Below are positions 4,690 to 42,871 of a stretch of DNA of 53,863 nt, one piece after another (the first letter of the stretch is position 1; every line of letters begins with the position of its first letter). The position numbers were made by a program, and so were the translations under genes. The notes under the pieces are model-generated. The model was given only the letters and a program-made list of their open reading frames with translations, did no database searches and had not been told where the DNA came from. The stretch is from Asterionella formosa (lineage: Eukaryota). The DNA lies in contig NKIB01013667.1 in the NCBI GenBank assembly GCA_002256025.1, positions 1 through 53,863 of the forward strand, in the 5' to 3' direction.

Positions 4690-5330
4690 TCCAGAGGGCA
4701 AAGGCTTTGATGGGGCAGAAGGTTGTGGAAGTGGAGCAACCATGCCCAATTTTTTCACCTTCGGTACCATTCTTTTGGGTAGTATCAACGGTGAGCAGGG
4801 ACATGAAGTCAGACTGTTGGAGAAGGGGTGAATCCAAACGGACTGGCTGGTCAAGGAGGTAGAATTCGACATTGGAGAGTTTGAAGGGCTTGTTGCCATG
4901 GGTAATGGTGTGCTTGCCGGCTGGGCCATCAGAGGAAGAAGAAACCAATAGTAATCATGTCTGCACTAAATTTGTCACAAACAGTGTTGCTGGTCCAGCA
5001 AAGGAGGAATTTGTATGAGGCCAGGGGGAGGCTAAAAACATGTATCTAGCTATACTATTTATTCTTACAATATTCCTCTCTAAGGGATAGGCCTGGAACT
5101 GCAGCTTGAGGGCAAAGATAACCTTTCCGTTGGGTTGCAACCGAGAATCGTGGTGACTGGGCACCAGCAGGGTGATTGTCTGGCCCACAGAGCGGAGGGA
5201 TGATTTAAAAGACTGTGCTCCCTTTCTTCTGGTATAGTTGCAACCAAACTTTATGGCTTGGCCAATCATGAAGCACAAGCCTCAATAATTCTCCGGGTAA
5301 CAGCTCCTCCTGTCAAAAATTTATTCTGAA
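4690..5330 (-). mobile_element. Degraded tyrosine-recombinase fragment of a DIRS/Ngaro-like retroelement
   Basis: Broken ORFs 4955-5278 (SLRSVGQTITLL...DSRLQPNGKVIFALKLQFQAY) and 4511-4948 (PFKLSNVEF...TTQKNGTEGEKIGHG...FCPIKA) resemble stramenopile YR-element recombinases; interrupted reading frame. Confidence 0.55.
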
Positions 5331-6098
5331 CCGAATGGTGCATATAATATATGTTCAAAGTAGTCTAGAGTTGCTTAGGTGAATCTGACCCCGACTTTTT
5401 GACGCATTTTCGTGGAATCGCGCCCCAATTGTAATGTTTGCTCTGGATCCCCCGTTTTTCATGACCGTTCGATAGTCAATAGACATAAGAAGCAGAATTT
5501 CACGCCATAAAAGCGACAAGAATGAAGCGCTGATCGCTCACTTTGCAACCTCAAAAGGGAGGCTGATGAGACCATCAACATGGATGGCTAGCTTGCCATA
5601 ATAGCTATATTATTCGACGTCTGTAGAACGAAATATTTTTTGTCCACAAACACATGCTTGTTAATTTATTTAGCTATATTTCTTTGGTAGTAATAGCCGG
5701 TTTTACATGCACATGGACAGGTCAGTGTGCTGGCCAACACAAATCCACATTTATCGCTATTTAGCGTTTTACTCTCCTAAACATACTAATCTAACTGGCA
5801 CACCTTTCGCCTGCATCGTCTTGTGTAGAAAATGCATCTTGTTTCTACAGAGGGCTTCTTTTAAGGACGTGGATTGAGCAGGCCAATTAAAAGAATTGTA
5901 GCAACTAAACCGGAATAGAGGGAGTACTACATATTTTGCTATGTAGTAGATTATTAAAATAAACTGTAACTGCGTATTTGCTATAATAAATGTGGCTATA
6001 GTACTAAATTTGAACCAGTAGATGAATGTAATACAATTGAATATAGAGAAAATGGTGTGTTTATACGTATACTATTCTATTCTATATAATACTACATT

Positions 6099-6475
6099 TG
6101 TTAAAAAGGATTGTACTCCTTCTGGTGGGCTGGGTCTCTTTACATAGATTATTACATGTCAGTAGCACTTCCTAGCACCACTTACTTTTTCTCTGCTCTG
6201 CTTCTAGCCTTCCTGATAGATAACTAATTGACCTTCCTGTCAATTCACACTCTGTTTCCTCAATTGATAATCTAAAATTGTAAGCTAAACTAAATGTTTC
6301 CTTTCCATGTATCTTTGCTTCCCACAAAGTCGTTCTAAGAATCTCCTCGAATTTCCACTTAACATTTCCATCATTGATCTTGTCAGACAGCTGATTGGCA
6401 TCGAAATGCAAGACTCGACTCAATTGATGACAATCGAGTCCACAATCTTCATGACTCCAGCTAATATTCTAGACA
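6099..6475. mobile_element. Solo LTR-like element, copy 1 (TGTT...GACA)
   Basis: ~377 bp with TG...CA ends; homologous in inverted orientation to 26139-26547; possible degenerate TSD acatt/gcatt (one-base offset). Confidence 0.65.
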
Positions 6476-6631
6476 CGCATTACTATATTATCGATCTCAA
6501 CTTCCCTGCATTCTTGTGCTTGTTCGTTCCTTTGTTCATGCATCATCTGAGGAACAGGCACATGGTTTCGCTGTTGAGCTTATCACTTCCCGTATTTGCC
6601 AGCAAGCAAAGGCTCGTATAACCTGAACAAG

Positions 6632-9600
6632 ATGAGAACGGTGTTCGACAATGCTGCCAAACTCGTGCGGGAGGCAGATTTAGTATTGACGACTGATATC
6701 AAGTTGACGTTGTATGGACTCTACAAGCACGTGACCTCAGGTCCTTGCCATGGTCAAGCACCCCCTATCTTCGCAGCTGAGAGGATGGCAAAGCACAAAG
6801 CATGGATTGCATGTCTTCACATGACAGAAGAGGAAGCGATGCGAGCCTACATTGATCTCGCTGCTTCCGTTGACAATTCTCCAGATCAGTGTCTGAAGCA
6901 GCTGCTTCAGGAATCCAATACAGACAACAAATGTCAACGAGAGGAGTCAGGGGAAGATGTAATGCCCTTGTCTCAAAATAAGACTCTTTTGGAAGCAGAA
7001 CCCTTTCGCTCGGATCCTACATGCGCTCCAAGCCAAGGCTTGCAGCAATCGATACTGCGGCCCCAGAAATTGGCGGAGTCGCTGCTCGCGTGCTTCGGTG
7101 TCAAACCAATATTCCCCCGGGGTCAGCTGGAGATAAGCTTTAGTGATCTGCGATTTGCTGCAGTTCAATGCCTATCCCTGGAGTCTTGCACAACACAATA
7201 TCTCGCAAATGAAGCGGAAATTACAAAGCGCTGGACAGCCAGCAGGGGCGATGCAAACGTCATTGTTGGCCTGTCCGTTCGAACACTCTTTGATCTATAT
7301 CTTCGATGCAAGGCGTATCCGGCGAAATCTGAAGTTATTGTAGTGCCGCCAATCAATATTCCTGGCATGATGGATATATTGAGATATCATGATCTCAAAG
7401 CTGTTGGCGTGGATATACCCAAATATGAAGGGAACAACCCGGTGATATGCATTGACATCAATGGAGTTAAAGCTGCAGTGACTGGAAATACTGTGGCCAT
7501 CATGGTTGTGCACCCATTTGGTATCATTAGCGCGTCGGAAAATGAAATGGAACAACTTTGTGAATTGGTAGAAGGACAAAAAATCGATGTGATTGAGGAT
7601 TGTGCGGAGTGCTTCACTGGTCTTGGACCTAGTTCTTACCTTGGAAGTAAGTATGCCGTCATTTCATTCTTTTCCTTTGGAACAATCAAGACGAGCACAG
7701 CTTTAGGTGGTGGTGTTGGGACTGTTCGTGATGAAAGTACCTTTCAGAAAATGAAACGAAAGCACATGCATATGTATAATCAGCAGAAGCAATCCACATA
7801 TTTCAGAAAAATTATGTTGGCGATGATTTTAAAAGCCATTGCGGGATCACCTGTAATGCATGGATTATTGTTCAAAATTATTAATTCCCTCCTTGGAATC
7901 GATACTGATGAGCTAGTGTCGTCGTTGACAGGGAGCTTTCAAATCAAACTCGACCACCAAGCTAAAGAGTGTGAAAACAAACCAGGAAGCACATTGATTA
8001 CTAAGATTCGGTTGCGACCATGCCCAGCGTTGTTGGCGTTGCTGAAACGTCGCTTGGACGAATGCAAGGTAAGTGCGCCGTCATGGAATGCCAAAAAGGA
8101 GAGATGCGAGTTATTGCGATCCTTGTGGACGAATTCTTCCTTCCAAATTGGCTTTCCAATTCCTTCCGCATCATCATTGCACACATATTGGTTGTATCCT
8201 GTGTTAGTGCATGATCCAGTTGTAGTATCTCGAGATCTTTTGCTTAAGGGATTCGATGTGCCGCGAGGTTTGTCTAAACTTGGATTGATCGACAGCGAGG
8301 CATCATGCCCCTTGGCAAAAGAAATGATGGCATCCATTGTCTATTTGCCAGTTTCACACCCACAGCTATCTGAAGCGTCAATGCGGGACCTTGTTGCTGC
8401 TATGGACGAGAGCATTTCAAAGCCTGAGCCTACACTACGAATTCTTTCTGAACGAACACAATCTTTGCATTTGAAACTCATAGTGACTGCATCGATGTTT
8501 TTTTCAATTCTAGCTCGATGCGCGTTCAAGCCAAAAGTATTGGGATATTCCGCAATTTGTATGGTTTCCGACGTGGCTGTATTTCTGTTGAGTAGTGCCA
8601 CTGTTGTTGGTATCATTGGGGCTTGCCTTCGATGGGTCGTTGCAGACTCGTACGTGAATACATCCAACTGCTTCGCCAAACACTGCTCGTTGCTTGACGA
8701 ATGTACAGCTGAAGAGTCCGTTACACAGCCACCACCTTGTGCCGCAAAATACCCGCTTAGCCCTAAATTCGGGTCTCTTACTAATCCCACGAGCGTTTTA
8801 ATTACTGGAGCAACAGGTTTTGTTGGCTCCTCTTTGCTTCACAACCTACTTAATCGGCGAAAAAGTCAATTATTTTCTGGTTACATAGTGATTCTCTGCA
8901 GACCAAAGTACGGGAAAAGTGTTTCAGAGAGAATTGAGAAGTTACTGGATCAACCGATGTTTTCCTTCATTTCGGTGGAAGAAAGAATTCGGTTTATCAA
9001 AGTTGTCATGGGTGATGTCTCAAAACCAAATGCTGGTCTTAACTCGAGTGATATGAAATGCTTGAGTGAAGAGTGGAATGTCGGGATCGTGTTTCATTGT
9101 GCAGCATCTGTCAGCTTCACGCAGAGTCTAGAGGAAGCAGCTTTGGCCAACATTACCCCTGCCCTAGCTCTTCAGTCATTTACGAAACGATTATTCCATC
9201 CGGAAGCAAAGTATATTCATATTAGCACTGCATTTGTGCACGGTAGTAAGTTTGGCACTCCAGAAGAACCTCTTGCTGAAAGGCTCTTTTCGCTTGGCCA
9301 GTACAATGCAGTGGAAGTTTACCGGTCAATGCAAGGGACCCAGTTCTATGCAGAGTCAGCCATGACGGACCTTGGCTTTCCCAACACCTACACTTTTAGC
9401 AAGTGTATTTGTGAACACCTTCTGCTTTCTAATGACGAAGGAGAGAGCATTATTATTCGCCCTTCAATTGTCGGTCCTGCTTTTCGCAATCCCTACGAAG
9501 GATGGGCTGGAGAAAGGCCATCAACTATTGTTGCTGCGGTGTGTCTCCAGATGAAATCTCAATGGAACATTTGGGACATGGGAAATGCAGATGTACCATA

Positions 9601-12600
9601 TATCCCGGTTGATATTACAGCGCAATTCATTGCTGTCAAAGCTTTTGATGATCACTCATCACAAGGTGAACAAGTTGATGTCGACAGTCTCCCTTCCTCG
9701 GACTTAAGCTTTGAGAGAATCAGCATTGACGAGACTTTGCTGTGCGTCCCCATTGAGGGAGAAAGCACATGTACATCCTCACTGTCATCATTAGAAGAAA
9801 AAGACCCCAGAATATTCCACGCAACATGGGATGTAAATTCAAGTCAAGGAGTGCATTTCTCATGGCGGGAGCTAGCTTTTGCTGTTAACCATGTTGGGTC
9901 ATTTATGGGGTATTTTACACGCTTTACTGCTTACGGGGTCCTCATCATGACTGCAAAAATAATACCAGCTCTAAAACTGAGCCGAAGAAACTTTGAATTG
10001 CTTCATTCATGGTTCATAAAGTTTCCAATTGCTGTTTTGCTCAAAATTTGTGGTGCCGTGAATTGGGAGCCACGGTTTGTGCTAGACCTAAAAAAATTGC
10101 TATCGTTCCTTGACTTGCCGGTTTTATTTACCCCATTCACAAAACAAACGTTTTGCTTTCGGTCCGAGATTCCAGTACCAAAAAGCTTATCTGGCGATCG
10201 ATATCTGTTCACTTGTTTGGCTGCTGCTCATCGTTTCCTTTCTCGTCAACAGTCCGAGGTGCCAACAAAAGTCATTATGACGTCTGTGTCTATTGCCGGG
10301 CAAGATTGCCCACAAAGGACATGGGATTTGTGGTGGGCACTCACACAACCTAAGGGAAGCATAATCATTAGAATTGCTGGATTCATTCTCATCAAATTGC
10401 TCCGGGCTATATGTACCGATGTGACAATTGACGTTAGTTCATTCTCGCACTTTCAAAAACTACGATCAGGCAACAGTCATGCTCACCTCATTCTTGCGCC
10501 AACTCATCGGTCAGTATTTGACTTTCTCATTATCAGTTTCATTGCATTCGCTCTTCCGGAGCTGAACATTAAGGTGCCATTCATCGTTGCTGCTGCCGAA
10601 TTTTCGAAACTACCAATCATAGGATGGCTTGCAAGTCGAGCAAACGCCTTCTTCGTTACACGCGGTGGAGGCCATGACCCCTCACTATTAAAAATGGTGC
10701 AACAGTTAAAGCGTGACCATGAAGCCATCGAGGTGTTTATTGAAGGGACTAGGAGTAGAGACAGAAGATTCGCAAAGCCAAGGACAGGGTTCCTTAGGTG
10801 CCTTGTCAACACTGGCGGGGATCACTTGATTGTTCCCATATGTATAAACTATGAAAAGCTACCAGAACAAGCTGCTTTTGCTGCTGAGGAAAATGGGTTC
10901 ACTCCTTCAAAACTTAACACTGACGGATTACTCGCTTGGCTTTGCGACGCATTCTCAGGTCGAATTTGTATTGGACGGATCCATGTCTCTTCCTCAGATC
11001 CAATTATGCTTAGCGAAAGGACCAAAACACCAATCAACTTCCAGAATCTCGCAACGCAAATTCAAAGTGGCCAAAAACAAGCTATTGCGATTTCCAATTA
11101 TCACATTTCAGCAGCAGCAGAGGCTCTGAATCTTGATGAGTCAATTGTGAATAGAGCTGTCGCCGCTTTAGGGTGCAGATATTGGCCAGAAAAAATAATA
11201 ACGAAGTGCGTTGTCCTCTCCAAATCTGAGCGAGACTCCCCGAGTCAACTGTGGAGCATCCTGCTTCATTTCGGTCACCTGTTGGCGCCTTCAATCAACG
11301 TATCTCACCCAAAGTGGGGTACTTGGCTTGACCCTAGTGTTGCAAATGGGTCTCCTTGCTATCGCGAAAGTGATTGTGATGTTGGATTGTTGACGAATGC
11401 CATGCTCCGCATTTTTGACAGAGCTGACGAATTGGCTGCGTGTACAGTTGATAGACTTCAGGAGAAGGGTTTCAGCACTCCAAAGTTCAATCATGTTCTT
11501 CAAAGTGCCATACATTCCTCTCAAGACAATCATGGCATCCCTATTCTTGTGCTACGTCGTGCTGTCGAAACCAAGATCGACTCAGCGTTTGAACCACACA
11601 CTATTGTTCCAAAAGACATTGGTCGAACTACATCATCGAAACCTAGAGATAAGAGAATATTCGATGACAATCAGGCCCTTGGAATGTGGGGGTATATGGA
11701 TAGTAGATTTGTCCTCCAAATCGAAGGCTCAGATGTACCAAGCGTGGTTATGAAAGGATCGAGATACCACCTGTGCGGGAAGTCTCTCAAAAGGCTTATT
11801 CCATTCATAGAAAACGAAACGAAATGTCGCTTCAACCCATTCATCGAATTGAAAGAAAGCAACATGGATATGGCAAGCATGGTATGCCCCCCTCCAGATT
11901 TTAACAATCGCCAACTTGAGGAATTGAGAGCATCTGTTCCGAAATGCTCTATCGAACCTATTGATCGCCTTCGTCATGGGACAGGGCAGACACAAGAAGA
12001 TATTTACATGCTTCGAACAGGGGTTACTTCGGCTTTAAGACTACCCGACATTGTCGTTTGGCCCTCATCCGAAGAGCATGTTGAGGCCCTAGTGTCAATG
12101 TCGAAAGAACATGGGTGGTGCCTACTACCTTTTGGTGGAGGGACAAATGTTTCCCATGCCACTCGTTGCCCATCAAAAGAACAAGAGCCTCGTCCAATTA
12201 TTTCTGTGGACATGAAAATGATGAGTCGAATCAGGTGGATCAATGAAGAAGATGGCTTAGCGCATGTCGAAGCTGGGATCACCGGGAAAGCCCTTGGGAA
12301 CGAAATGAGAAAAAGGGGATATTGTTTTGGTCATGAGCCAGACAGCCTTGAGTTCAGCACTCTTGGAGGTTGGATCGCCACAAAAGCAAGTGGAATGAAG
12401 CGAGGAAAATACGGAAATATCGAAGATATTGTCAAGGACGTGCACATGGTTGGGGCTGAAGGCCTCCTTGCAACAGAAAGTAAAACCACCGGTCGATCTG
12501 CTTTGGGACTGGATCTAGTATCCCTTCTCCTTGGCTCCGAAGGCTGTCTTGGAATCATTACAAGCGCCACCATTAGGATCTGGCCGTTGCCAGAAAGCAC

Positions 12601-13420
12601 CGATTTTGAAAGTGTCATTCTTCCGGACTTTGGTCAAGGCATTTTATTTGCCCGCGACATGGCAAAGCTTGGCCCATTCACACCTGCAAGTGTGCGCCTA
12701 CTCGACAATGATCATTTTCGACTTGGACAAGCCCTTCACGCAGATGGGTCACTTCTGGAAAGGGCGACTGTTCATATAGCCAAGACGCTGTCGCCAAGGT
12801 TGCAAATGGCGTCAAAACCGTCTGCGGTTTGTGCAACAATCATGTTCGAAGGCAAGCGGGATGAAGTTTGCGAGCAAAAGAAATGCCTGAGAAGAATTGT
12901 CGTCAAGCATGGGGGTGTGCTGGTTGGACCCCGCATCGGCCTTGCTGCATACGAACTTACGTTTTCCATTGCATACTTACGAGACTTTGCTCTGACTTAT
13001 CACTTTCTTGGTGATTCATTTGAGACTTTCGCTCCTTGGTCGAAACTTGAAGTTATCATCTCGGCCACAAAGAGGCGAATCCGAAAGGAGCATCTAGAAC
13101 GAAGTTTGCCTGGCTTTCCTTTTATTGCATGCCGAATAACGCAATTGTACCATGAAGGTGTGTGTGTGTATTTTTACGTTTGTATGAACATTGAACAAGT
13201 CACAAACCCAAGTGATGTTTTCACTGAAATTGCACATGCTGCAAGAGAGGAGATTCTAATGCATGGAGGATCCTTGAGCCATCATCATGGTATTGGAAAG
13301 ATTCGGGCTCCCTTCCTGGATGTGCTTTATTGTGATAATTATCGGGCCACTCTCGCTTCAGTGAAGAAAAGCATCGATCCAGAGAATGTATTTGGTGCTC
13401 GGAATGGTATCTTCAGTTAG
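6632..13420 (+). CDS. Multidomain ether-lipid synthase: ACBP + DegT/DnrJ PLP aminotransferase + TM + fatty acyl-CoA reductase + DHAP acyltransferase (GNPAT-like) + alkyl-DHAP synthase (AGPS)
   Basis: Single uninterrupted 2262-aa ORF from ATG 6632 carrying the diagnostic motifs of each domain (see domain entries). Confidence 0.9.
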   Translation: MRTVFDNAAKLVREADLVLTTDIKLTLYGLYKHVTSGPCHGQAPPIFAAERMAKHKAWIACLHMTEEEAMRAYIDLAASVDNSPDQCLKQLLQESNTDNKCQREESGEDVMPLSQNKTLLEAEPFRSDPTCAPSQGLQQSILRPQKLAESLLACFGVKPIFPRGQLEISFSDLRFAAVQCLSLESCTTQYLANEAEITKRWTASRGDANVIVGLSVRTLFDLYLRCKAYPAKSEVIVVPPINIPGMMDILRYHDLKAVGVDIPKYEGNNPVICIDINGVKAAVTGNTVAIMVVHPFGIISASENEMEQLCELVEGQKIDVIEDCAECFTGLGPSSYLGSKYAVISFFSFGTIKTSTALGGGVGTVRDESTFQKMKRKHMHMYNQQKQSTYFRKIMLAMILKAIAGSPVMHGLLFKIINSLLGIDTDELVSSLTGSFQIKLDHQAKECENKPGSTLITKIRLRPCPALLALLKRRLDECKVSAPSWNAKKERCELLRSLWTNSSFQIGFPIPSASSLHTYWLYPVLVHDPVVVSRDLLLKGFDVPRGLSKLGLIDSEASCPLAKEMMASIVYLPVSHPQLSEASMRDLVAAMDESISKPEPTLRILSERTQSLHLKLIVTASMFFSILARCAFKPKVLGYSAICMVSDVAVFLLSSATVVGIIGACLRWVVADSYVNTSNCFAKHCSLLDECTAEESVTQPPPCAAKYPLSPKFGSLTNPTSVLITGATGFVGSSLLHNLLNRRKSQLFSGYIVILCRPKYGKSVSERIEKLLDQPMFSFISVEERIRFIKVVMGDVSKPNAGLNSSDMKCLSEEWNVGIVFHCAASVSFTQSLEEAALANITPALALQSFTKRLFHPEAKYIHISTAFVHGSKFGTPEEPLAERLFSLGQYNAVEVYRSMQGTQFYAESAMTDLGFPNTYTFSKCICEHLLLSNDEGESIIIRPSIVGPAFRNPYEGWAGERPSTIVAAVCLQMKSQWNIWDMGNADVPYIPVDITAQFIAVKAFDDHSSQGEQVDVDSLPSSDLSFERISIDETLLCVPIEGESTCTSSLSSLEEKDPRIFHATWDVNSSQGVHFSWRELAFAVNHVGSFMGYFTRFTAYGVLIMTAKIIPALKLSRRNFELLHSWFIKFPIAVLLKICGAVNWEPRFVLDLKKLLSFLDLPVLFTPFTKQTFCFRSEIPVPKSLSGDRYLFTCLAAAHRFLSRQQSEVPTKVIMTSVSIAGQDCPQRTWDLWWALTQPKGSIIIRIAGFILIKLLRAICTDVTIDVSSFSHFQKLRSGNSHAHLILAPTHRSVFDFLIISFIAFALPELNIKVPFIVAAAEFSKLPIIGWLASRANAFFVTRGGGHDPSLLKMVQQLKRDHEAIEVFIEGTRSRDRRFAKPRTGFLRCLVNTGGDHLIVPICINYEKLPEQAAFAAEENGFTPSKLNTDGLLAWLCDAFSGRICIGRIHVSSSDPIMLSERTKTPINFQNLATQIQSGQKQAIAISNYHISAAAEALNLDESIVNRAVAALGCRYWPEKIITKCVVLSKSERDSPSQLWSILLHFGHLLAPSINVSHPKWGTWLDPSVANGSPCYRESDCDVGLLTNAMLRIFDRADELAACTVDRLQEKGFSTPKFNHVLQSAIHSSQDNHGIPILVLRRAVETKIDSAFEPHTIVPKDIGRTTSSKPRDKRIFDDNQALGMWGYMDSRFVLQIEGSDVPSVVMKGSRYHLCGKSLKRLIPFIENETKCRFNPFIELKESNMDMASMVCPPPDFNNRQLEELRASVPKCSIEPIDRLRHGTGQTQEDIYMLRTGVTSALRLPDIVVWPSSEEHVEALVSMSKEHGWCLLPFGGGTNVSHATRCPSKEQEPRPIISVDMKMMSRIRWINEEDGLAHVEAGITGKALGNEMRKRGYCFGHEPDSLEFSTLGGWIATKASGMKRGKYGNIEDIVKDVHMVGAEGLLATESKTTGRSALGLDLVSLLLGSEGCLGIITSATIRIWPLPESTDFESVILPDFGQGILFARDMAKLGPFTPASVRLLDNDHFRLGQALHADGSLLERATVHIAKTLSPRLQMASKPSAVCATIMFEGKRDEVCEQKKCLRRIVVKHGGVLVGPRIGLAAYELTFSIAYLRDFALTYHFLGDSFETFAPWSKLEVIISATKRRIRKEHLERSLPGFPFIACRITQLYHEGVCVYFYVCMNIEQVTNPSDVFTEIAHAAREEILMHGGSLSHHHGIGKIRAPFLDVLYCDNYRATLASVKKSIDPENVFGARNGIFS
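6638..6880 (+). other. Acyl-CoA-binding (ACBP) domain
   Basis: F..AA..V......KL.LYGLYKH.T.GPC....P......AK..AW.....M..EEAM..YI. Confidence 0.85.
7100..8420 (+). other. DegT/DnrJ/EryC1/StrS-family PLP-dependent aminotransferase domain
   Basis: T.AIMVVHPFG, VIEDCAE (PLP-binding Asp), FSFGTIKTSTALGGG (Schiff-base Lys at 7688-7690), H.YWLYPV, C-terminal .YLPV. Confidence 0.85.
8790..10240 (+). other. Fatty acyl-CoA reductase (alcohol-forming, male-sterility/SDR) domain
   Basis: VLITGATGFVG, HCAASVSF, HISTAFV, NTYTFSK (YxxxK), IIRPSIV, PYEGW, IPVD. Confidence 0.9.
10330..11160 (+). other. Glycerolipid acyltransferase (GNPAT/PlsB-like) domain
   Basis: PTHRSVFDF (HxxxxD), AFFVTR, FIEGTRSR, IVPICINYE. 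Confidence 0.9.
11670..13417 (+). other. Alkyl-dihydroxyacetone-phosphate synthase (FAD-linked) domain
   Basis: WGY.D, PD.VVWP, PFGGGTNVS, GHEPDSLEFSTLGGW.AT.ASGMK..KYGNIED, GSEG.LG, PASVRL.DN, SFET..PW, CRITQLY..G.CVYFY, GGSLSHHHGIGKIR. Confidence 0.92.
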
Positions 13421-13709
13421 TTAAAATGCTACTTGCACCAGTGTGCAAACATATTCTACTGCTTCTATATTGATACTAAAGCTAGACTTCTCACTTAAGC
13501 TTCAGATCTTGAAATATATCTTTCATGTTAAATATTAACCAATAATACACAAAGGAGTGCAGCCATCAGTGGCAAGTGGTACCGGGTTGCATATTTTATT
13601 ATTAGTTTTTGATACTTGATACTAATGTCATAGTTTATGAACAAACCTGGTACCAGGTAGTATGAGCCAAAATGATTCATTTACCTGACAAGAGCAAAAC
13701 AAGAATTAC

Positions 13710-14500
13710 TCACCATAAAAGGGGAACACGGTCAAGAGATTGTTATCAACAAGGTCAATATTGTTGGGTTGGTTAGCATAGCATGGAAAAATCATTTGAA
13801 AATGTGATGACCATAATAATGAGGATGGGGTCCCTGTGAACTACAATGAAACCTGAAAGCCATCAGCGGCTGAAGTTCTCACAATAACAATCACACACAC
13901 ACACTCCCAGATGAATTGAATGTTCAAACTGGCTATACTGGAACTCTTGTTGAACAAATCAATGACTTCTGCAACTGTGATGAAGCCTGAAATGGAATTG
14001 ATCATGAGCAGTGCATACTTCAAGGGGCACAAGGCAAGGATTACTGCTGGTTTGCTAGTATCAGCTAAATATGTTGAACTTGGCCCAATATTCTAGCTGC
14101 CACTCAGGAATGGAAGGAGAGGCAAGATGATGTGATACATGCAAAGAAGTAAATAGTCACAAGAATTGCAACCCTTGAAACAAAAGTGCTGCCTCTAAAG
14201 GAATACAACAGTACAAATGAGCAAAATGTCAGTAGTAAATTTATGGTGCAATGCATGGTATAGATGATGCCAAGAAAACTTACCATCGCCACAAACAAGA
14301 TCAGGGCTACTTACCAGATTTATCAAAACCAATCATTGCAGTGAACAGCATCCATCATTCCTGCTTCTTGCGCCTCCCCTTGTCCCTGTTGCTACGATGG
14401 CTACCCTCGCTCTTTCAGAACCACCAGATGTTGTGTGAACATGGTGTGCAAATGAGAAATCTGTTGAGAGGGAGGAGAACCTGGCAGCAGATGCTAAGTT
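13710..14500 (+). mobile_element. Possible decayed pogo/DDE_1-like transposase C-terminal remnant
   Basis: Frameshifted pieces reading IVGLVSIAW, RGWGP.NYN, LNVQTGYTG, RITAGLL; no intact ORF. Confidence 0.3.
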
Positions 14501-16161
14501 GAAATGATCAATGTACAATGCATGTCAGGTAAATATATGGAAGAAGATACTTGTATTCAGATATGCACAATCCAGGCATAATGTAATAAAAAATAGTTTT
14601 CATAGTAGTAACATAAAAGGAAAAAGACCACAATTTGGAAAAACTTCATATATAGATTAAAAAATATGTAATGATAGGCAATCATGTTATGATTCAAAAT
14701 GGGTGACATAAAATGGTTTAGATCCCGTCCATAAATGTGCGCTCTACTTTGAAACTCATTACATTGATATCAATCCCCTTTCTATCATCTATAGAAATAT
14801 TCGTGCTTGCTTATAATTGGTACCAGGTACCTCGGTTGTAAGTGCATATGCATCATAAAACTATTTGTAGTATATTTCATTAAGAAATCATTCTGACCTT
14901 ACATATTTGCACATAGTTCGACCATGTTAATTCTGACACTTGTTCTTTGACCATGTTTATTTTTGTTTTGTTCACCCCATGTAATGCGCTTGTAGGGCAT
15001 GCTTCTTGCCCAAATAGTCAGGCTTCTGAAAAACTTGAAAGCCAAGAACATTCTTGCAGAAACAGCCATAGCTTTACATGTGATCTTTTCGAAAGGATAA
15101 GGAAAGTTTTAGAATCTATGAAGAATGAGCTGTTGATGCTGCCTGCACATACAAGCCGCATTTTGAAGAAAATGGATCAAATAGGAATTTTGCAAAAATG
15201 AGGTAGCCAGATGGGTGGTTACAGGGTAAGTCATTTCTATGTATACTGGTACATACATAGTTCATAATTAAGCATTTTTTATCAAATACATATACACCAC
15301 CATAGCACCATCTTCAATGTTCTATCACTAGTCATGAGGACTGTGGACTCCACAAAGTCCAATGAGACAAAATGTTGGGTTGAACCATCAAGAAGCGTGT
15401 TAATGATACTACTCGTGTTCCCAATGAATTGGAAGAGGAAGATTTACATCAAATAAAGGGAACAGCAGAGAATGGTTCCCAAAATGAAGAATTTGGTGGA
15501 AACTAGAGTTTAGTTCAATTTTATTTTGGTCAAGAAAAAGTAAGAAAGAGAGAGGAAAGGTCATTGGCGAATACTGGCGAAAAAGCTAGCAGTAGAATAT
15601 TTACCAGTTCTCTTTGTGGTACAATAGTTGATATTCATTTTACTTCCTGAGGATGAGATACTGCCCGGCGTGGGAAGCAGTACATACGGTATATTTTATG
15701 TGAGGATCTTTTCGCAGGAGAGGCTCCTCGAAATTCAACTGCACGTTTGAGTACCGGTATGGATTTTTGCTTAGCGCGTACAGCACAGCCAAACAGGAGT
15801 TTGAATCATGTGATTGCTTGGTGGTGACTGCGATTGGCTCGTCTTGCGAACTTCCAAGTCAAGCAGATCTTGTGGCTGAGATTCGAGAGAGTACCGGTAA
15901 TACCGGTATGTAGTATAGATCGTCATTTACGTAGGTACCAGGTACCACGATCCATTTTCATACGCTCATTTATCTGCCAATATTTTTATATATCCATCAT
16001 TACCAAGACAAAGTGTTGTCACACAAATTACCAGGCTACAGGTATAAATTCCCCACATTCCCAACAGGCCATTGTTTCTGTTAGCAATCTGCCGCCAACA
16101 CGAGCGAACCGACCCATCACCAAACGACGACTATCAGTTTAGCGACGCCACCGCCGATACC

Positions 16162-17670: not shown

Positions 17671-19326
17671 TCATGACGACCTTTTGCAATACATGTATGT
17701 ATTTAGTATCAAACAGCCTATTTTCGCTTCATTTTGTAGGCAATAGCCGGACGATGGATAGAGTCGATTTGCTGCAGTGAGGATCTGCGGAGTGGTCGCA
17801 ACAACCGCATACGGGGTTTCCGAGCCAATCTGCAACTCTATAGATTCGTGGCATGCCTGAAGCAGAGCCTTACCGATGCCTTTGCCCCGACTTGATGAGT
17901 CCACCAATAGCCGATTGACTTCAAAGCAAATCAAACCAACAGGATGGCTTGGTTGAGGAGAATGACAGGAAGTGTACCCAATACAACCAATCACCGTTCG
18001 GTCGATGGCATTAAGTGCCACAAGAAACGCGCCTCCCCTCATGGCATATCTTCTTGCAATGCATGGGTCTGTATCTGATGCCTGCATATCAGTCTTCAGT
18101 GCGGTCTTGACCATTTTCCGCACGGCTTTCCAGTCGGTGGCAAGGTCTTGGTAGGTACGAACAAAAAGGTCCTGAACTACCTGCTGATGACTTGTTTCAA
18201 TGCAGTTGACGATGATAGAGACACCGTCTTTGACTTGCATTGACTTCAAAGCCACATCTTGTTTCGGTACATTAGACCATGGGCACATGGCCCGTACAAA
18301 CTTCAATGGGACATTTTGAGAGAACGATATAGCTAGTACATATGCATGGAGGTGCAAGGCCAACGCAGCGTGTTCATCAAAGGGTTCTGGGGCTACCAGT
18401 GTCGTCAAACATGCAGCAGCATGACCTGCGAGACAAGCTTTTGCAAACGCAAACCCAATTCTTTCGAATCGCATTTCCACAGCCAAAGCGTTGCTTCCCA
18501 GAGGATGAAAAACGTCATCTGGATTCGATTTAGCAAGTCCACGTTCTAGCTTGTCAACAAACTTCTGATAGTATCGCGCTTTGTAGCCTTCTATGACCGA
18601 GTTTTGGGAGCTGCTTGCAGCAGGTCCAAGCGCCTCGAATGCGACAAACGCACTTGTCGGATTCGCGCACAGGTGTTCCGCAATGAATCTAGAGATTTCA
18701 TCAACGCCAACACGTCCCAGATAGGCCAACACTAGCTCAGATAAGACAAGAGTGGGAAGGCTGCAGTCCACTTGTGACAAGGCTTGTTGGAGCTGCCTCA
18801 TATCTCGAAGATCGCACGACCGCAGGTTGTAATTTTTGGATGTTGCGTTGCCTTTGTGAATTATGGAAGCGCTATACGCACCAGAATTGGTCATTGAGGA
18901 GTGCTCATTTCCAGTTAAGGGTTGAACCAAGCCTGCTGAAGTTAAGATCCTTCGCTTCTCCCGAAAAATGTCGTCAGTATCAATCTCGAACACTTCGATT
19001 TTATTCGGACAGAGAGAACTTGCCCATAAGCCCAAAATATCCAATCCACCCCCGATAATAACCAGCTGCAGATTTCTTGCGTTGTCTTGGTTAAACTTGA
19101 TGAAGGCATCAATCGTCGAAGTCACAACTGCTATCCTCGCCGCGTATCCAGCATTCACAAGCGGTGATTGTCGCTTGTGACTGGGAGTGTACGAAGCAAT
19201 GGCTTCCACCAAGTCGGCGTAGATGTTTGGATTTTCCTTGACAGGCTGGTATCCCACTTTGAGGGCAGATTGCTTCGCTAGAAGCGCATCATACGCGGTG
19301 CGAACAACGCTGCTGGATGCTGACAT
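17671..19326 (-). CDS. Leucine carboxyl methyltransferase (LCMT/PPM1-like) fused to a C-terminal GNAT acetyltransferase
   Basis: RQSPLVNAGYAAR, QLVIIGGGLD, FEID, DLRD, PTLVLSELVLAYL, EPFDE..A...H; GNAT motif A RLLVDSSSRGKGIGKALL and AANRLY...GY. Confidence 0.8.
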   Translation of the reverse strand: MSASSSVVRTAYDALLAKQSALKVGYQPVKENPNIYADLVEAIASYTPSHKRQSPLVNAGYAARIAVVTSTIDAFIKFNQDNARNLQLVIIGGGLDILGLWASSLCPNKIEVFEIDTDDIFREKRRILTSAGLVQPLTGNEHSSMTNSGAYSASIIHKGNATSKNYNLRSCDLRDMRQLQQALSQVDCSLPTLVLSELVLAYLGRVGVDEISRFIAEHLCANPTSAFVAFEALGPAASSSQNSVIEGYKARYYQKFVDKLERGLAKSNPDDVFHPLGSNALAVEMRFERIGFAFAKACLAGHAAACLTTLVAPEPFDEHAALALHLHAYVLAISFSQNVPLKFVRAMCPWSNVPKQDVALKSMQVKDGVSIIVNCIETSHQQVVQDLFVRTYQDLATDWKAVRKMVKTALKTDMQASDTDPCIARRYAMRGGAFLVALNAIDRTVIGCIGYTSCHSPQPSHPVGLICFEVNRLLVDSSSRGKGIGKALLQACHESIELQIGSETPYAVVATTPQILTAANRLYPSSGYCLQNEAKIGCLILNTYMYCKRSS

Positions 19327-41875: not shown

Positions 41876-42871
41876 ATGGAGATACCGCATTCTCAGCAAT
41901 TCTTTGCCGCTTACACAGCGAAAGATTTGATACTGTATGCTCTCTCAATCGGCTACGGAGACGAAGACCTGAAGTTTGTTTTTGAGCATGATCCAGACTT
42001 CCAAGCCGTGCCGACGTTTCCATTCGTTCTCGCCTTTTGGGCGCATCAACAACAAATGGACCATGGACGAAGCTCTAATGACAGAATGCAGCCCTTTCCC
42101 CCAAACATGATGCAGGAAGTCGGCCTAATACCAGATATTTGTAGGAAGACAAGCTGCCTATTCGAAGGACCGGTCCTCCACACGTGGCAGTCGATCCGAT
42201 GGCATCAGGAGGTACCTGTCCCGCAAATAAGTGAACTGCATCGGACCGAGTACGACGCACCAGCAACCACCACAATAACATCTCGACCGCTGTCTGTAAC
42301 TCCAAAGCCAATTGGTACCTTTGTTACTTCAGAAACACGGATCGCCATGGCAGCAACGGGACAGCCGCTCTGCACCTTGATTGCAACGTCCTTGATGCTC
42401 GGCATGCCGGAGGACGATATCATAGCACTGTCCGGGAGCAGTCCGAAAAGAATCACTCCTTTTATTTCATCTTCCGCTCCGACCTTTGTGTGGAGATATA
42501 CAACACACTCAGCACAAGCGTTGCTGTATAGACTCGGCAGCGGCGATTCGAATAAGATTCATGTGGACTCGTCAGCTGCACTTTTATTGGATATTAATAC
42601 AAGCAAACCTATCTTGCATGGTCTATGTACACTAGGCATTGCAACAAGAGCCATACTGCAGTGTCTCGGTCAGAATACAAAGCTGATTTATCTAGAGGGT
42701 CAGTTTACTTTTCCAGTTTTTGTCGGTGATGCACTGGTTGTGAGCTTATGGGACAATCCAGAGAAACAGTCTATGCACTTTAAAGTTACCACGGAAGGAT
42801 CGGAAAAGGTGATTCTAGATAATGGCTATCTCGAATATGATCATGCTCATCGTTTAACTTCTCGATTATAA
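41876..42871 (+). CDS. Peroxisomal (R)-specific enoyl-CoA hydratase 2 (MaoC double hot-dog), PTS1 -SRL
   Basis: DLILYALSIG, PTF, ALLYRLGSGDSNKIHVD, PILHGLCTLG, F..PVF.GD; ends TSRL. Confidence 0.85.
   Translation: MEIPHSQQFFAAYTAKDLILYALSIGYGDEDLKFVFEHDPDFQAVPTFPFVLAFWAHQQQMDHGRSSNDRMQPFPPNMMQEVGLIPDICRKTSCLFEGPVLHTWQSIRWHQEVPVPQISELHRTEYDAPATTTITSRPLSVTPKPIGTFVTSETRIAMAATGQPLCTLIATSLMLGMPEDDIIALSGSSPKRITPFISSSAPTFVWRYTTHSAQALLYRLGSGDSNKIHVDSSAALLLDINTSKPILHGLCTLGIATRAILQCLGQNTKLIYLEGQFTFPVFVGDALVVSLWDNPEKQSMHFKVTTEGSEKVILDNGYLEYDHAHRLTSRL

Follow-up and report, generated by a model that had tools for sequence, protein, structure and literature searches.

A single diatom polypeptide joining acyl-CoA-binding, DegT-type, fatty acyl-CoA reductase, acyltransferase and alkyl-DHAP synthase domains, with a predicted role in ether-lipid synthesis

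The window analysed was the whole 53,863-nucleotide contig NKIB01013667.1 of Asterionella formosa (assembly GCA_002256025.1), read on the forward strand. Only one open reading frame of at least 150 aa, that of the gene described here, overlaps positions 5000–15000 of the window (Table 1). From the base composition of the window, 2262 codons in a row would be free of stops with a probability of about 10^-60.6. The start codon is the first in-frame ATG because the frame opens only at the TTG at 6596, and the public protein collection contains a protein (P0002) that is 100% identical to the 2262-aa product.

Table 1. Features of the fusion gene and its product; positions refer to the window and residue numbers to the predicted protein.
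Feature	Residues (aa)	Position	Strand	Basis or remarks
Minimum transcribed extent (5' leader, CDS, 3' UTR)		6549..13541	+	RNA contig X1 record 1
Upstream ORF, 19 codons, out of frame with main CDS		6562..6621	+	Read from sequence, within X1 contig
Coding sequence	1-2262	6632..13420	+	2262 aa, 250.9 kDa; single uninterrupted ORF
ACBP domain	4-76	6641..6859	+	Pfam PF00887, E 1e-16; PDB ACBP matches
DegT/DnrJ/EryC1-type PLP aminotransferase-fold domain	~160-595	7109..8416	+	Pfam PF01041 (DegT_DnrJ_EryC1 233-394, E 2.4e-15)
Hydrophobic segment between DegT and FAR, probable membrane anchor/hairpin	614-671	8471..8644	+	Kyte-Doolittle
FAR domain (NAD_binding_4)	724-1000	8801..9631	+	Pfam PF07993, E 8.6e-43
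PlsB/GPAT/DHAPAT-type acyltransferase domain	1244-1483	10361..11080	+	Pfam PF01553 (1284-1405, E 9.4e-20)
AGPS module incl. N-terminal AGPS-specific region	1684-2258	11681..13405	+	Similarity to solved AGPS

The RNA evidence for the locus was taken from Logan contigs; DNA can occur in RNA libraries and such contigs alone cannot prove transcription. Record 1 of contig X1, a 6993-nt sequence from a poly(A) library, was colinear with positions 6549–13541, with one mismatch, no gaps and no joints. The contigs of other runs started at 6510 (X5) or 6598 (X3) and ended as far downstream as 13769 (X3), while the bins at 5894–6481 and 13832–14400 had zero RNA cover in all four runs, drawn from three studies. 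The first-pass annotation had called the ORF intronless, which the ungapped contig bears out, and had named separate transcripts or a misassembly as possible objections; a single colinear contig spanning the ORF between silent flanks answers both. The gene is a real nuclear gene of an araphid pennate diatom, probably of fresh water, and is transcribed as one intronless mRNA.

The domain organisation of the product was examined by Pfam searches and by comparison with solved structures, and residue conservation was scored over 64 full-length homologues, with gapped rows left out where denominators are smaller. Six Pfam domains were found on the one polypeptide in the order that had been proposed, and by its sequence the protein is an ACBP, a DegT-type PLP domain, a hydrophobic anchor, a FAR, a PlsB/DHAPAT-type acyltransferase and an AGPS, from N- to C-terminus. 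The acyl-CoA contacts of the ACBP domain (Y..YK) are retained, with Y28 present in 57/57 and K32 in 56/57 of the non-gap homologues. The FAR domain matches the fatty acyl-CoA reductase 7eoz (E 6.9e-10), and the residues of its Rossmann TGxxGxxG and YxxxK motifs (G726, G729, G732, Y920 and K924) are kept in all 64 homologues; no C-terminal FAR_C/'Sterile' domain (PF03015) was matched in Pfam at E 0.01 or better. The acyltransferase domain matches the NCBIfam PlsB model (E 1e-18) and the GPAT1 structure 8e4y (E 1.1e-13), with the HxxxxD and xEGxRSR blocks (H1292, D1297, E1371, G1372, R1374, S1375 and R1376) again kept in 64/64, and gave no match to GPAT_C (PF19277) in the Pfam search.

The AGPS module contains FAD_binding_4 (1805–1945, E 1.3e-32) and FAD-oxidase_C (1987–2255, E 1.5e-25) and aligns with residues 94–656 of the 658 of guinea-pig AGPS (4bby, E 5e-131) and with the Dictyostelium enzyme 2uuu (E 1.9e-68). 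Residues R2022, Y2180 and H2217–2219 align with guinea-pig Arg419, Tyr578 and the His615–617 loop, which we take to be catalytic, and the position aligned with Y2180 is the very one at which the wild-type chain and the Y578F variant 4bca differ. Among non-gap homologues R2022 is kept in 64/64, Y2180 in 60/60 and the HHH triplet in 59/59. All of the motifs named in the first-pass annotation were located (TGATGFVG at 725, YTFSK at 920, HRSVFD at 1292, FIEGTRSR at 1369 and HHH at 2217–2219), and its description of FAR, DHAP-acyltransferase-type and AGPS domains with intact, conserved catalytic residues is upheld.

The hydrophobic segment between the DegT and FAR domains gave a 19-residue Kyte-Doolittle peak of 2.36, and 62 of 63 homologues reach at least 1.5 at the aligned place. 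A peroxisomal PTS1 signal was sought at the C-terminus; the window protein ends in ...ARNGIFS and none of the 64 full-length homologues ends in [SAC][KRH][LMI]. The protein is probably membrane-anchored and its site of action is probably not the peroxisomal matrix. The earlier peroxisomal-type framing is accordingly doubtful, given the missing PTS1-like end, the conserved anchor and a FAR-AT module that falls outside the FARAT/GNPAT clade (below).

Relatives of the protein were collected from public databases, giving 121 sequences of 1244–3959 aa from pennate and centric genera. Dozens are full-length, including proteins of Nitzschia, Fistulifera, Seminavis, Thalassiosira, Cyclotella, Skeletonema and Chaetoceros, and those of Thalassionema and one further relative are full-length MMETSP transcripts. 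Databases automatically name the diatom fusion 'alkyldihydroxyacetonephosphate synthase'. The window protein nests within the pennate diatoms in the tree, adjoining Thalassionema. The gene is a diatom-wide orthologue, not one peculiar to the Asterionella window.

Many database entries are shorter, either of about 1400–1700 aa and lacking AGPS or of about 800 aa and containing AGPS only, as might be expected if the long ORF were an artefact of misassembly or of read-through across adjacent genes. In these short entries the sequence breaks off after '...WLWV' and continues with unrelated residues, and the break coincides exactly with the position of a 74-nt GTAAGT...AG intron in the independent metagenome contig L151, whose five modules all share one strand with no interruption other than that intron. 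The two halves are co-located on scaffolds (Cylindrotheca gene models AAC.27/AAC.28, and contigs of matching length for the pairs P0092/P0347 and P0088/P0376), and because they share scaffolds the short entries are taken as split gene calls. Together with the one RNA contig that spans the ORF and the full-length transcripts of other diatoms, this leaves an artefact with a negligible probability. ACBP-DegT-FAR-AT 'short forms' without AGPS were also considered as true paralogues and were rejected as intron-split gene calls. Since the intron splits many gene calls, the fusion has probably been overlooked, hidden by truncated gene models.

The DegT-type domain matches stand-alone proteins of about 400 aa end to end. 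An AF2 model of the domain had a pLDDT of 90.1, and the top Foldseek matches were ArnB, PseC and the perosamine synthase PerA (TMt 0.73–0.77), although sequence identity to solved sugar aminotransferases is only 14–19%. In alignments with 7n63 and 2c7t, residues D323 and K353 take the places of the PLP Asp and Schiff-base Lys; both are kept in 64/64 homologues, and the motif SFGxIKTxTALGGG around K353 is equally invariant at an overall identity of only about 40%. The alignment and the model indicate that the domain is a complete fold-type I PLP fold with both cofactor residues in place. A search of the protein-cluster atlas with this segment returned DegT-family clusters at all top positions, mostly bacterial, and two proteins, P0281 and P0302, join the same subfamily to ACBP. 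Protein P0287 (DegT plus FAD_binding_4) was considered as a DegT-AGPS fusion and rejected, its FAD part being 24% identical to the AGPS module over 206 aa. Plasmids were searched by tblastn for genes resembling RtxA, presumably itself a member of the DegT family, or MosB, and gave 50 weak generic DegT matches (best E 3e-6, at most 44% query coverage). The aminotransferase in the first-pass domain list stands, but its role had been ignored; the domain is complete, keeps its Lys throughout and in some bacteria is associated with AGPS genes.

Fusions outside the diatoms bear on what this domain does. Dinoflagellates carry the same DegT-FAR-AT-AGPS fusion; the non-diatom fusions of Pycnococcus and Triparma carry FAR-AT-AGPS with no DegT Pfam match, and a second Seminavis paralogue lacks both ACBP and DegT. 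Such proteins would suit a catalytically silent domain, acting in dimerisation, scaffolding or regulation, within what would be an ACBP-tethered FARAT plus AGPS, as would the fact that fold-type I PLP enzymes are obligate dimers. The invariance of the Lys, the Asp and the surrounding motif in so divergent a family is however hard to explain without cofactor chemistry, and a silent domain is judged rather improbable. The context of the DegT domain would argue for a substrate from a lipid pathway.

The FAR-AT module was placed using a quick IQ-TREE analysis of 37 rows, in which a branch with 100% SH-aLRT support sets the algal fusions apart from animal GNPAT and the FARATs of Paramecium. The nearest non-algal relatives are FAR-AT proteins of 860–900 aa, which form the sister group to the algal fusions. 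A FAR-AT protein from a Myxococcota MAG (P0147) is 35% identical to the module (E 4e-51), and no relatives of P0147 were found in the genome contig collection searched. The module lies outside the ciliate FARAT and animal GNPAT groups, and its specificity for DHAP is therefore extrapolated; that it would prefer DHAP to glycerol-3-phosphate is read solely from its joining to AGPS.

FAR, DHAP acyltransferase and AGPS are the committed enzymes of ether-lipid synthesis. The protein is probably a 251-kDa membrane-anchored alkyl-DHAP synthase fusion with a further, PLP-dependent step. In such an enzyme the ACBP domain would capture long-chain acyl-CoA, the FAR domain would convert one acyl-CoA with NADPH to a fatty alcohol, and the acyltransferase would esterify a second acyl-CoA to DHAP. 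That acyl group would then be swapped for the alcohol by the AGPS module, with 1-O-alkyl-DHAP formed at the membrane surface, and the PLP domain would carry out one more reaction on an intermediate of this pathway. As in the first-pass annotation, we infer channelling of substrates and an alkyl-DHAP end product.

One candidate for the further step is transamination of the C2 ketone of alkyl-DHAP (or acyl-DHAP) by the DegT-type domain, in place of acyl/alkyl-DHAP reductase. The product would be 1-O-alkyl-2-amino-2-deoxyglycerol-3-phosphate (alkyl-serinol phosphate), a backbone for an amino-ether lipid. The proposal is tentative and, on balance, unlikely. It is consistent with the conserved cofactor residues of a complete and confidently modelled fold, with the amination of secondary ketones such as keto-sugars and inososes by DegT-family enzymes (as given in PDB titles), and with the fusion of the subfamily to ACBP noted above. 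It is also purely inferential; no alkyl-serinol-type amino-ether lipid was found in the literature searched, and we know of no alkyl-serinol-phosphate ether lipid of the proposed type. The alkyl-DHAP reductase of eukaryotes, moreover, usually has a gene of its own, which leaves its absence from the fusion uninformative.

Bacterial loci offer evidence for and against a DegT step in the ether-lipid pathway, and on both sides of the amination proposal. DegT loci were found using a degenerate DNA pattern for FGxIKTATALGG, which favours members with the exact motif, and any link to AGPS was thus observed at loci located through the DegT gene. Among the matches listed, three of the 110 DegT loci, all from Verrucomicrobiota, have the subfamily gene directly beside AGPS. 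The first (L014) clusters FAR, acyltransferase, HAD, AGPS and DegT; the second (L037) contains acyltransferase, AGPS and DegT with a convergent FAR; and the third (L039), which is short, has only AGPS and a ketosynthase gene besides DegT. None of the 17 ORFs scanned in L014 and L037 matched a separate short-chain reductase family, which favours amination in place of reduction. Against this, the other 107 of the 110 listed loci have no ether-lipid neighbours, and clustering of the neighbours of 68 DegT loci revealed no conserved partner, the best being shared in 9/68. A neighbour cluster present in 53 DegT loci was set aside, as it most likely consists of ORFs antisense to the DegT gene.

The association was also approached from the AGPS side. 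Of 401 Verrucomicrobiota genomes surveyed, 50 gave a match to the L037 AGPS with an E value of 1e-40 or lower. Close matches, of about 50% identity or more, came only from the genome of the query itself (G001) and from G048, and the remaining matches (32–45% identity) may be other FAD oxidases. The AGPS orthologue of G048, found independently of DegT, had no DegT-subfamily match within its 1.5-kb flanks; elsewhere that genome has only six partial DegT matches, all away from the contig that carries AGPS, which cover about residues 41–193 of the 403 in the query with E values no better than 1.4e-22. It is conceivable, at a low probability, that diatoms, dinoflagellates and a few Verrucomicrobiota share an ether-lipid branch in which a DegT-subfamily enzyme transaminates the C2 ketone of 1-O-alkyl-DHAP instead of its being reduced.

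No paper describing the ACBP-DegT-FAR-AT-AGPS architecture was found in the parts of the literature searched. The first-pass annotation likewise knew of no characterised protein with the full architecture. The gene itself already stands auto-annotated across diatoms in public databases. In the portions covered, a 2026 survey of ether-lipid enzymes lists diatoms only as plain AGPS, includes the Phaeodactylum AGPS part in its Dataset S5 and states that, outside ciliates, the Diaphoretickes are a group in which AGPS, GNPAT and FAR 'rarely coexisted' (PMC13012113). Against that statement, AGPS, GNPAT-type and FAR domains coexist here in one conserved, expressed diatom polypeptide. The literature searched likewise contained no report of 1-O-alkyl lipids in diatoms, through lack of looking or real absence, so that the description of an algal group not regarded as an ether-lipid producer holds for diatoms within that literature.

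The fusion suggests that diatoms make an ether-type lipid that nobody has looked for. Diatoms are major primary producers whose lipids are heavily studied for ecology, biofuels and sediment biomarkers, and if the enzyme is active they would produce 1-O-alkyl or related lipids, which escape lipidomics of the standard, ester-focused kind. By our own reasoning this would, if true, bear on the assignment of alkylglycerol biomarkers to bacteria. The fusion would also be a natural one-protein cassette for fatty alcohol and ether-bond formation. The invariance of the PLP domain marks a step absent from the textbook pathway, one open to direct testing, since Phaeodactylum, a model that can be transformed, has the AGPS part; were amination true, it would give a new, ceramide-like class of amino-ether lipid in some of the main primary producers of oceans and lakes.

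A close comparison is with FARAT, given in the covered portions of the survey as the bifunctional FAR-GNPAT that Tetrahymena thermophila and other protists possess (PMC13012113). As in FARAT, one polypeptide has a FAR on the N-terminal side of a DHAP-acyltransferase-type domain and would supply both AGPS substrates. Unlike FARAT, the diatom protein adds a C-terminal AGPS, and its FAR is preceded by an ACBP, a DegT-type domain and a hydrophobic anchor. It also lacks Pfam matches to GPAT_C and Sterile, and a PTS1, whereas ciliate-type FARATs carry PF03015. In Myxococcus xanthus the AGPS gene, which we take to be MXAN_1676, adjoins MXAN_1675. The latter is given as a FAR-GNPAT in the part of the literature covered, and the diatom order of FAR-AT followed by AGPS mirrors this gene pair, although the bacterial FAR-AT and AGPS are separate genes. 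The survey, in the same portions, describes GNPAT, AGPS and FAR1 of animals as three separate proteins (PMC13012113). These peroxisomal enzymes represent the same three chemistries, and the Tyr, HHH and Arg of animal AGPS are also found in the diatom protein, which differs in joining everything in a single chain, in having two additional domains and in ending without a PTS1. Its AGPS module is much closer to animal AGPS, at the E value given above, than to verrucomicrobial AGPS (28–30% identity). RtxA's N-terminal domain from Bradyrhizobium elkanii, a DHAP aminotransferase according to the part of the source covered (PMC3222319), offers a precedent in which the keto group of DHAP undergoes PLP-dependent amination, and its likeness to the DegT domain is drawn from chemistry. 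The verrucomicrobial loci L014 and L037 contain the same four catalytic families as the diatom fusion, with a DegT protein that carries SFGxIKTATALGG; unlike the fusion, they consist of separate genes in a different order and have no ACBP.

The megasynthase was encoded by an uninterrupted open reading frame of 2262 codons, corresponding to a protein of 250.9 kDa (Table). The chance of a stop-free run of this length, computed from the base composition of the window, was approximately 10^-60.6, and no second ORF of 150 aa or more overlapped positions 5000–15000, which bears out the single ORF claimed in the first-pass annotation. The frame opens only at TTG 6596, so that ATG 6632 is the first in-frame start codon; this start site was common to the megasynthase and its closest homologues. 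Six Pfam domains followed the claimed order of ACBP, aminotransferase, fatty acyl-CoA reductase (FAR), acyltransferase (AT) and alkyl-DHAP synthase (AGPS), and NCBIfam was concordant, giving PlsB-type acyltransferase, thioester reductase and DegT-family matches. The observation of the megasynthase was thus confirmed. The other genes of the window were ordinary eukaryotic nuclear genes, including an Rpn10-like VWA+UIM protein and PAPS reductase, and none had a visible functional link to the megasynthase; one ORF showed an unusual pairing of domains.

Features of the megasynthase and of other window genes; conservation refers to 64 full-length homologues
Feature	Window position	Strand	Residues	Basis or conservation
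Megasynthase ORF, ATG to stop	6632–13420	+		
Upstream ORF (ATG...TAA), 19 codons	6562–6621			
ACBP			4–76	Pfam
DegT_DnrJ_EryC1			233–394	Pfam
NAD_binding_4			724–1000	Pfam
Acyltransferase			1284–1405	Pfam
FAD_binding_4			1805–1945	Pfam
FAD-oxidase_C			1987–2255	Pfam
ACBP residue			Y28	57/57 non-gap
ACBP residue			K32	56/57 non-gap
FAR residues			G726, G729, G732, Y920, K924	64/64
Acyltransferase residues			H1292, D1297, E1371, G1372, R1374, S1375, R1376	64/64
AGPS residue			R2022	64/64
AGPS residue			Y2180	60/60 non-gap
AGPS residues			H2217–2219	59/59 non-gap
DUF3095 protein, 496 aa	1994–3484	-		E 7e-106
Leucine carboxyl methyltransferase domain + C-terminal GNAT acetyltransferase domain	17671–19326	-		
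MaoC/MFE-2-type hydratase ORF	41876–42871	+		

Expression of the gene was examined in public sequencing data. The megasynthase stretch was contained wholly or partly in 15 public runs, 14 of which were recorded as RNA, mostly under lake water or freshwater metagenome labels, and contigs of four runs from three studies (X1, X3, X5 and X7) were compared with window positions 5600–14400. The poly(A) library X1 gave a single contig of 6993 nt corresponding to 6549–13541, with one mismatch and no gaps or joints, and contigs of the other three runs tiled the same interval. Bins 5894–6481 and 13832–14400 had zero cover in all four runs. Because the contig ends match the gene, the flanks are silent and the library was poly(A)-selected, one intronless transcript, in keeping with the intronless ORF of the first-pass annotation, is by far the simplest reading, with the caveat that contigs from RNA libraries may include DNA. 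The lake metatranscriptome contigs (X3, X5, X7) differed from the window over 7342–13450 by approximately 36 substitutions and no indels, a pattern resembling population variation and consistent with natural populations of the window's own species or one very close to it. The 5' leader contained a short upstream ORF, out of frame with ATG 6632 and within the RNA contig beginning at 6549.

A length-matched search gave 121 relatives, dozens of them 2200–2500 aa long with the identical Pfam set. Named sources included the pennates Nitzschia inconspicua, Nitzschia sp. Nitz4, Fistulifera solaris and Seminavis robusta, as well as Thalassiosira oceanica, Thalassiosira profunda, Cyclotella, Discostella, Cyclostephanos and Skeletonema marinoi; full-length MMETSP transcripts, with taxids checked, came from Chaetoceros sp., Thalassionema nitzschioides and one more. 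The megasynthase is thus a diatom-wide orthologue and not peculiar to the window. In a FastTree phylogeny of 40 rows, the megasynthase and two 62%-identical sequences grouped among the pennates as sister to Thalassionema, which makes an araphid pennate diatom the most likely source of the window; centric diatoms, Triparma, Pycnococcus and a dinoflagellate group (Prorocentrum and relatives) branched successively further out. A dinoflagellate-type clade (P0103–P0106, P0110 and P0112, including Prorocentrum cordatum) had DegT-FAR-AT-AGPS fusions in which ACBP was undetected, which shows that the PLP module also occurs outside diatoms. FAR-AT-AGPS fusions lacking both ACBP and DegT were seen as well (P0108 from Seminavis robusta, and P0139); they represent a second and highly divergent paralogue, which at least one raphid pennate carries together with the full-length form P0040.

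Many database entries comprised only ACBP-DegT-FAR-AT (~1400–1700 aa) or only AGPS (~790–820 aa). These were considered as separate proteins and rejected as such, since the ends of the entries, the adjacency of the halves and an intron show them to be halves of one gene. The short ACBP-DegT-FAR-AT entries terminate in '...WLWV' followed by unrelated residues, at window residues ~1437–1440. The two Cylindrotheca gene models AAC.28 and AAC.27 are neighbours on the same scaffold, and the half pairs P0092/P0347 and P0088/P0376 come from source contigs of equal size. The diatom-like metagenome contig L151 contains the entire five-module gene on a single strand; its tblastn alignment is interrupted by a 74-nt GTAAGT...AG intron (L151:11336–11409), which falls at query residue 1437, between 'WLK' and 'DAF'. 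Gene callers that disregard introns therefore break the gene in two at this point, at which the window copy has no intron.

The 64 full-length homologues, chosen as high-coverage rows with truncated entries excluded, were aligned using MAFFT and had an overall identity to the megasynthase of ~40%. The FAR, acyltransferase and AGPS motifs that had been described as intact were invariant at their key residues across all non-gap rows. The AGPS module aligned with residues 94–656 of the 658 of guinea-pig AGPS (E 5e-131), placing R2022, Y2180 and the HHH motif over R419, Y578 and H615–617, the catalytic residues of that enzyme; in the same alignment the deposited Y578F variant departs from the wild-type chain exactly at the Y2180 column.

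Residues 614–671 are strongly hydrophobic and probably form a membrane anchor, with a Kyte-Doolittle maximum of 2.36 over 19 aa and values of at least 1.5 in the aligned segment of 62 of 63 homologues. The N-terminus opens directly with ACBP, and no PTS1-like C-terminus was present in any of the 64 homologues. For these reasons a soluble location in the peroxisomal matrix via PTS1 appears unlikely.

The first-pass annotation had listed the aminotransferase domain but assigned it no role. D323 and K353 were kept in 64/64 diatom homologues, inside an invariant SFGxIK(T)xT motif. By alignment these occupy the PLP-binding Asp and Schiff-base Lys columns of solved DegT enzymes. Residues ~160–595 matched stand-alone proteins of ~400 aa end to end at 33–37% identity (E 1e-33 to 1e-40), and a search with the DegT segment gave 1888 hits at E ≤1e-3 and 178 at ≤1e-30. 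An AlphaFold2 model from a 76-row alignment had a mean pLDDT of 90.1 and a pTM of 0.91, with approximately 110 additional, mainly helical residues at segment positions 248–361; Foldseek ranked ArnB, PseC, perosamine synthase and WecE highest (TMt 0.73–0.77, identity 14–19%). The end-to-end matches, conserved D323 and K353, confident model and Foldseek ranks together indicate that the domain is a complete PLP enzyme and belongs to a DegT subfamily of its own. The subfamily, marked by the motif SFGxIKTATALGG, is large and widespread (Planctomycetota, Pseudomonadota, Myxococcota, Chloroflexota and Streptomyces), and in loci L001–L111 Pfam covers only profile positions ~45–220 of 360. Fusions to ACBP occurred in either order (P0281, P0302), and P0287 was fused to a FAD_binding_4 domain; the latter was rejected as a DegT-AGPS fusion, the FAD part (24% identity over 206 aa) not being clearly AGPS.

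Searching GTDB genomes with a degenerate pattern based on this motif gave at least 111 loci; in 110 of the 111 listed, the DegT gene was recovered by tblastn using the diatom modules as queries. An AGPS-like gene adjoined it in three of these 110, from Opitutaceae (L014), Verrucomicrobiae (L037) and Verrucomicrobiota (L039), all reached via the DegT gene. In L014 (4333–10714) genes for FAR, acyltransferase, HAD, AGPS and DegT are co-oriented and abutting, in L037 (211–5204) those for acyltransferase, AGPS and DegT overlap with FAR convergent, and L039 combines AGPS and DegT with a gene for a large ketosynthase protein. No ether-lipid neighbour, or any conserved neighbour, was present in the remaining 107 listed loci. 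Among 401 Verrucomicrobiota genomes just one further close AGPS orthologue was found (G048), with no DegT-subfamily neighbour in its 1.5-kb flanks. The bacterial DegT-AGPS association is real but rare. The L014 and L037 clusters may encode an uncharacterised form of the AGPS ether-lipid pathway in bacteria.

In the proposed mechanism, acyl-CoA bound by ACBP would supply two modules, FAR producing a fatty alcohol and the acyltransferase producing acyl-DHAP, after which AGPS would make 1-O-alkyl-DHAP; proximity of the modules could plausibly ease the hand-over of hydrophobic intermediates. The PLP domain implies one additional step. Our preferred specific hypothesis, tentative and rather unlikely as it stands, is that this domain transaminates the C2 ketone of alkyl-DHAP, replacing the usual reductase. 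Ketone amination is the chemistry of the DegT family, and the FAR/AT/AGPS/DegT clusters apparently lack a reductase, as none of the 17 ORFs examined in L014 and L037 matched a separate short-chain reductase. A precedent is provided by RtxA, presumably a DegT-family member. This enzyme transaminates DHAP to serinol phosphate (PMC3222319). The main alternative for the domain, a non-catalytic scaffolding role, is considered distinctly unlikely. The ether-lipid interpretation of the first-pass annotation is supported in part, and the ORF and domain architecture on which it was built stand.

The gene is already present in databases, mis-simplified as 'AGPS': where named, its relatives carry the automatic label 'alkyldihydroxyacetonephosphate synthase'. 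A full-text literature search, with subscription journals outside its scope, found no description of the fusion or of diatom-made ether lipids, in line with the first-pass annotation, which was aware of no characterised protein with the full architecture. The words 'diatom', 'ACBP' and 'aminotransferase' do not occur in the main text of PMC13012113, which states that AGPS, GNPAT and FAR 'rarely coexisted' in Diaphoretickes outside ciliates. Of its Datasets S2–S5, S5 classes proteins of Phaeodactylum, Pseudo-nitzschia and Fragilariopsis simply as AGPS, PF01565 and PF02913 being their only domains, and S2–S4 contain none of six diatom names searched. PMC9244630 discusses a cryptophyte in which FAR and AGPS are separate, and not the ACBP-DegT-FAR-AT-AGPS fusion. 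In the literature searched, there seems to be no account of the architecture, of the PLP module or of the implied diatom ether-type lipid.

Earlier statements that the ether-lipid enzymes are separate in animals and that FAR-acyltransferase fusions are known are confirmed by PMC13012113, in which FAR-GNPAT 'FARAT' fusions are the rule among non-metazoan plasmalogen producers and MXAN_1675 of M. xanthus is a FAR-GNPAT fusion. Outside the algae, the closest relatives retrieved with the acyltransferase region were FAR-AT proteins of 860–900 aa, among them P0147 from a Myxococcota MAG (E 4e-51); matches to Paramecium FARAT (~E 1e-12) and metazoan DHAPAT (E 2e-6) were far weaker. In a quick IQ-TREE phylogeny of 37 rows, a branch with 100% SH-aLRT set the algal fusions and the bacterial-type FAR-AT group apart from ciliate FARAT, animal GNPAT and GPAT_C-bearing proteins, and Pfam detected neither GPAT_C nor Sterile domains in the megasynthase. 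The megasynthase is thus predicted to work like FARAT plus AGPS, whereas this branch and the undetected domains place its FAR-AT module outside the canonical FARAT/GNPAT clade.
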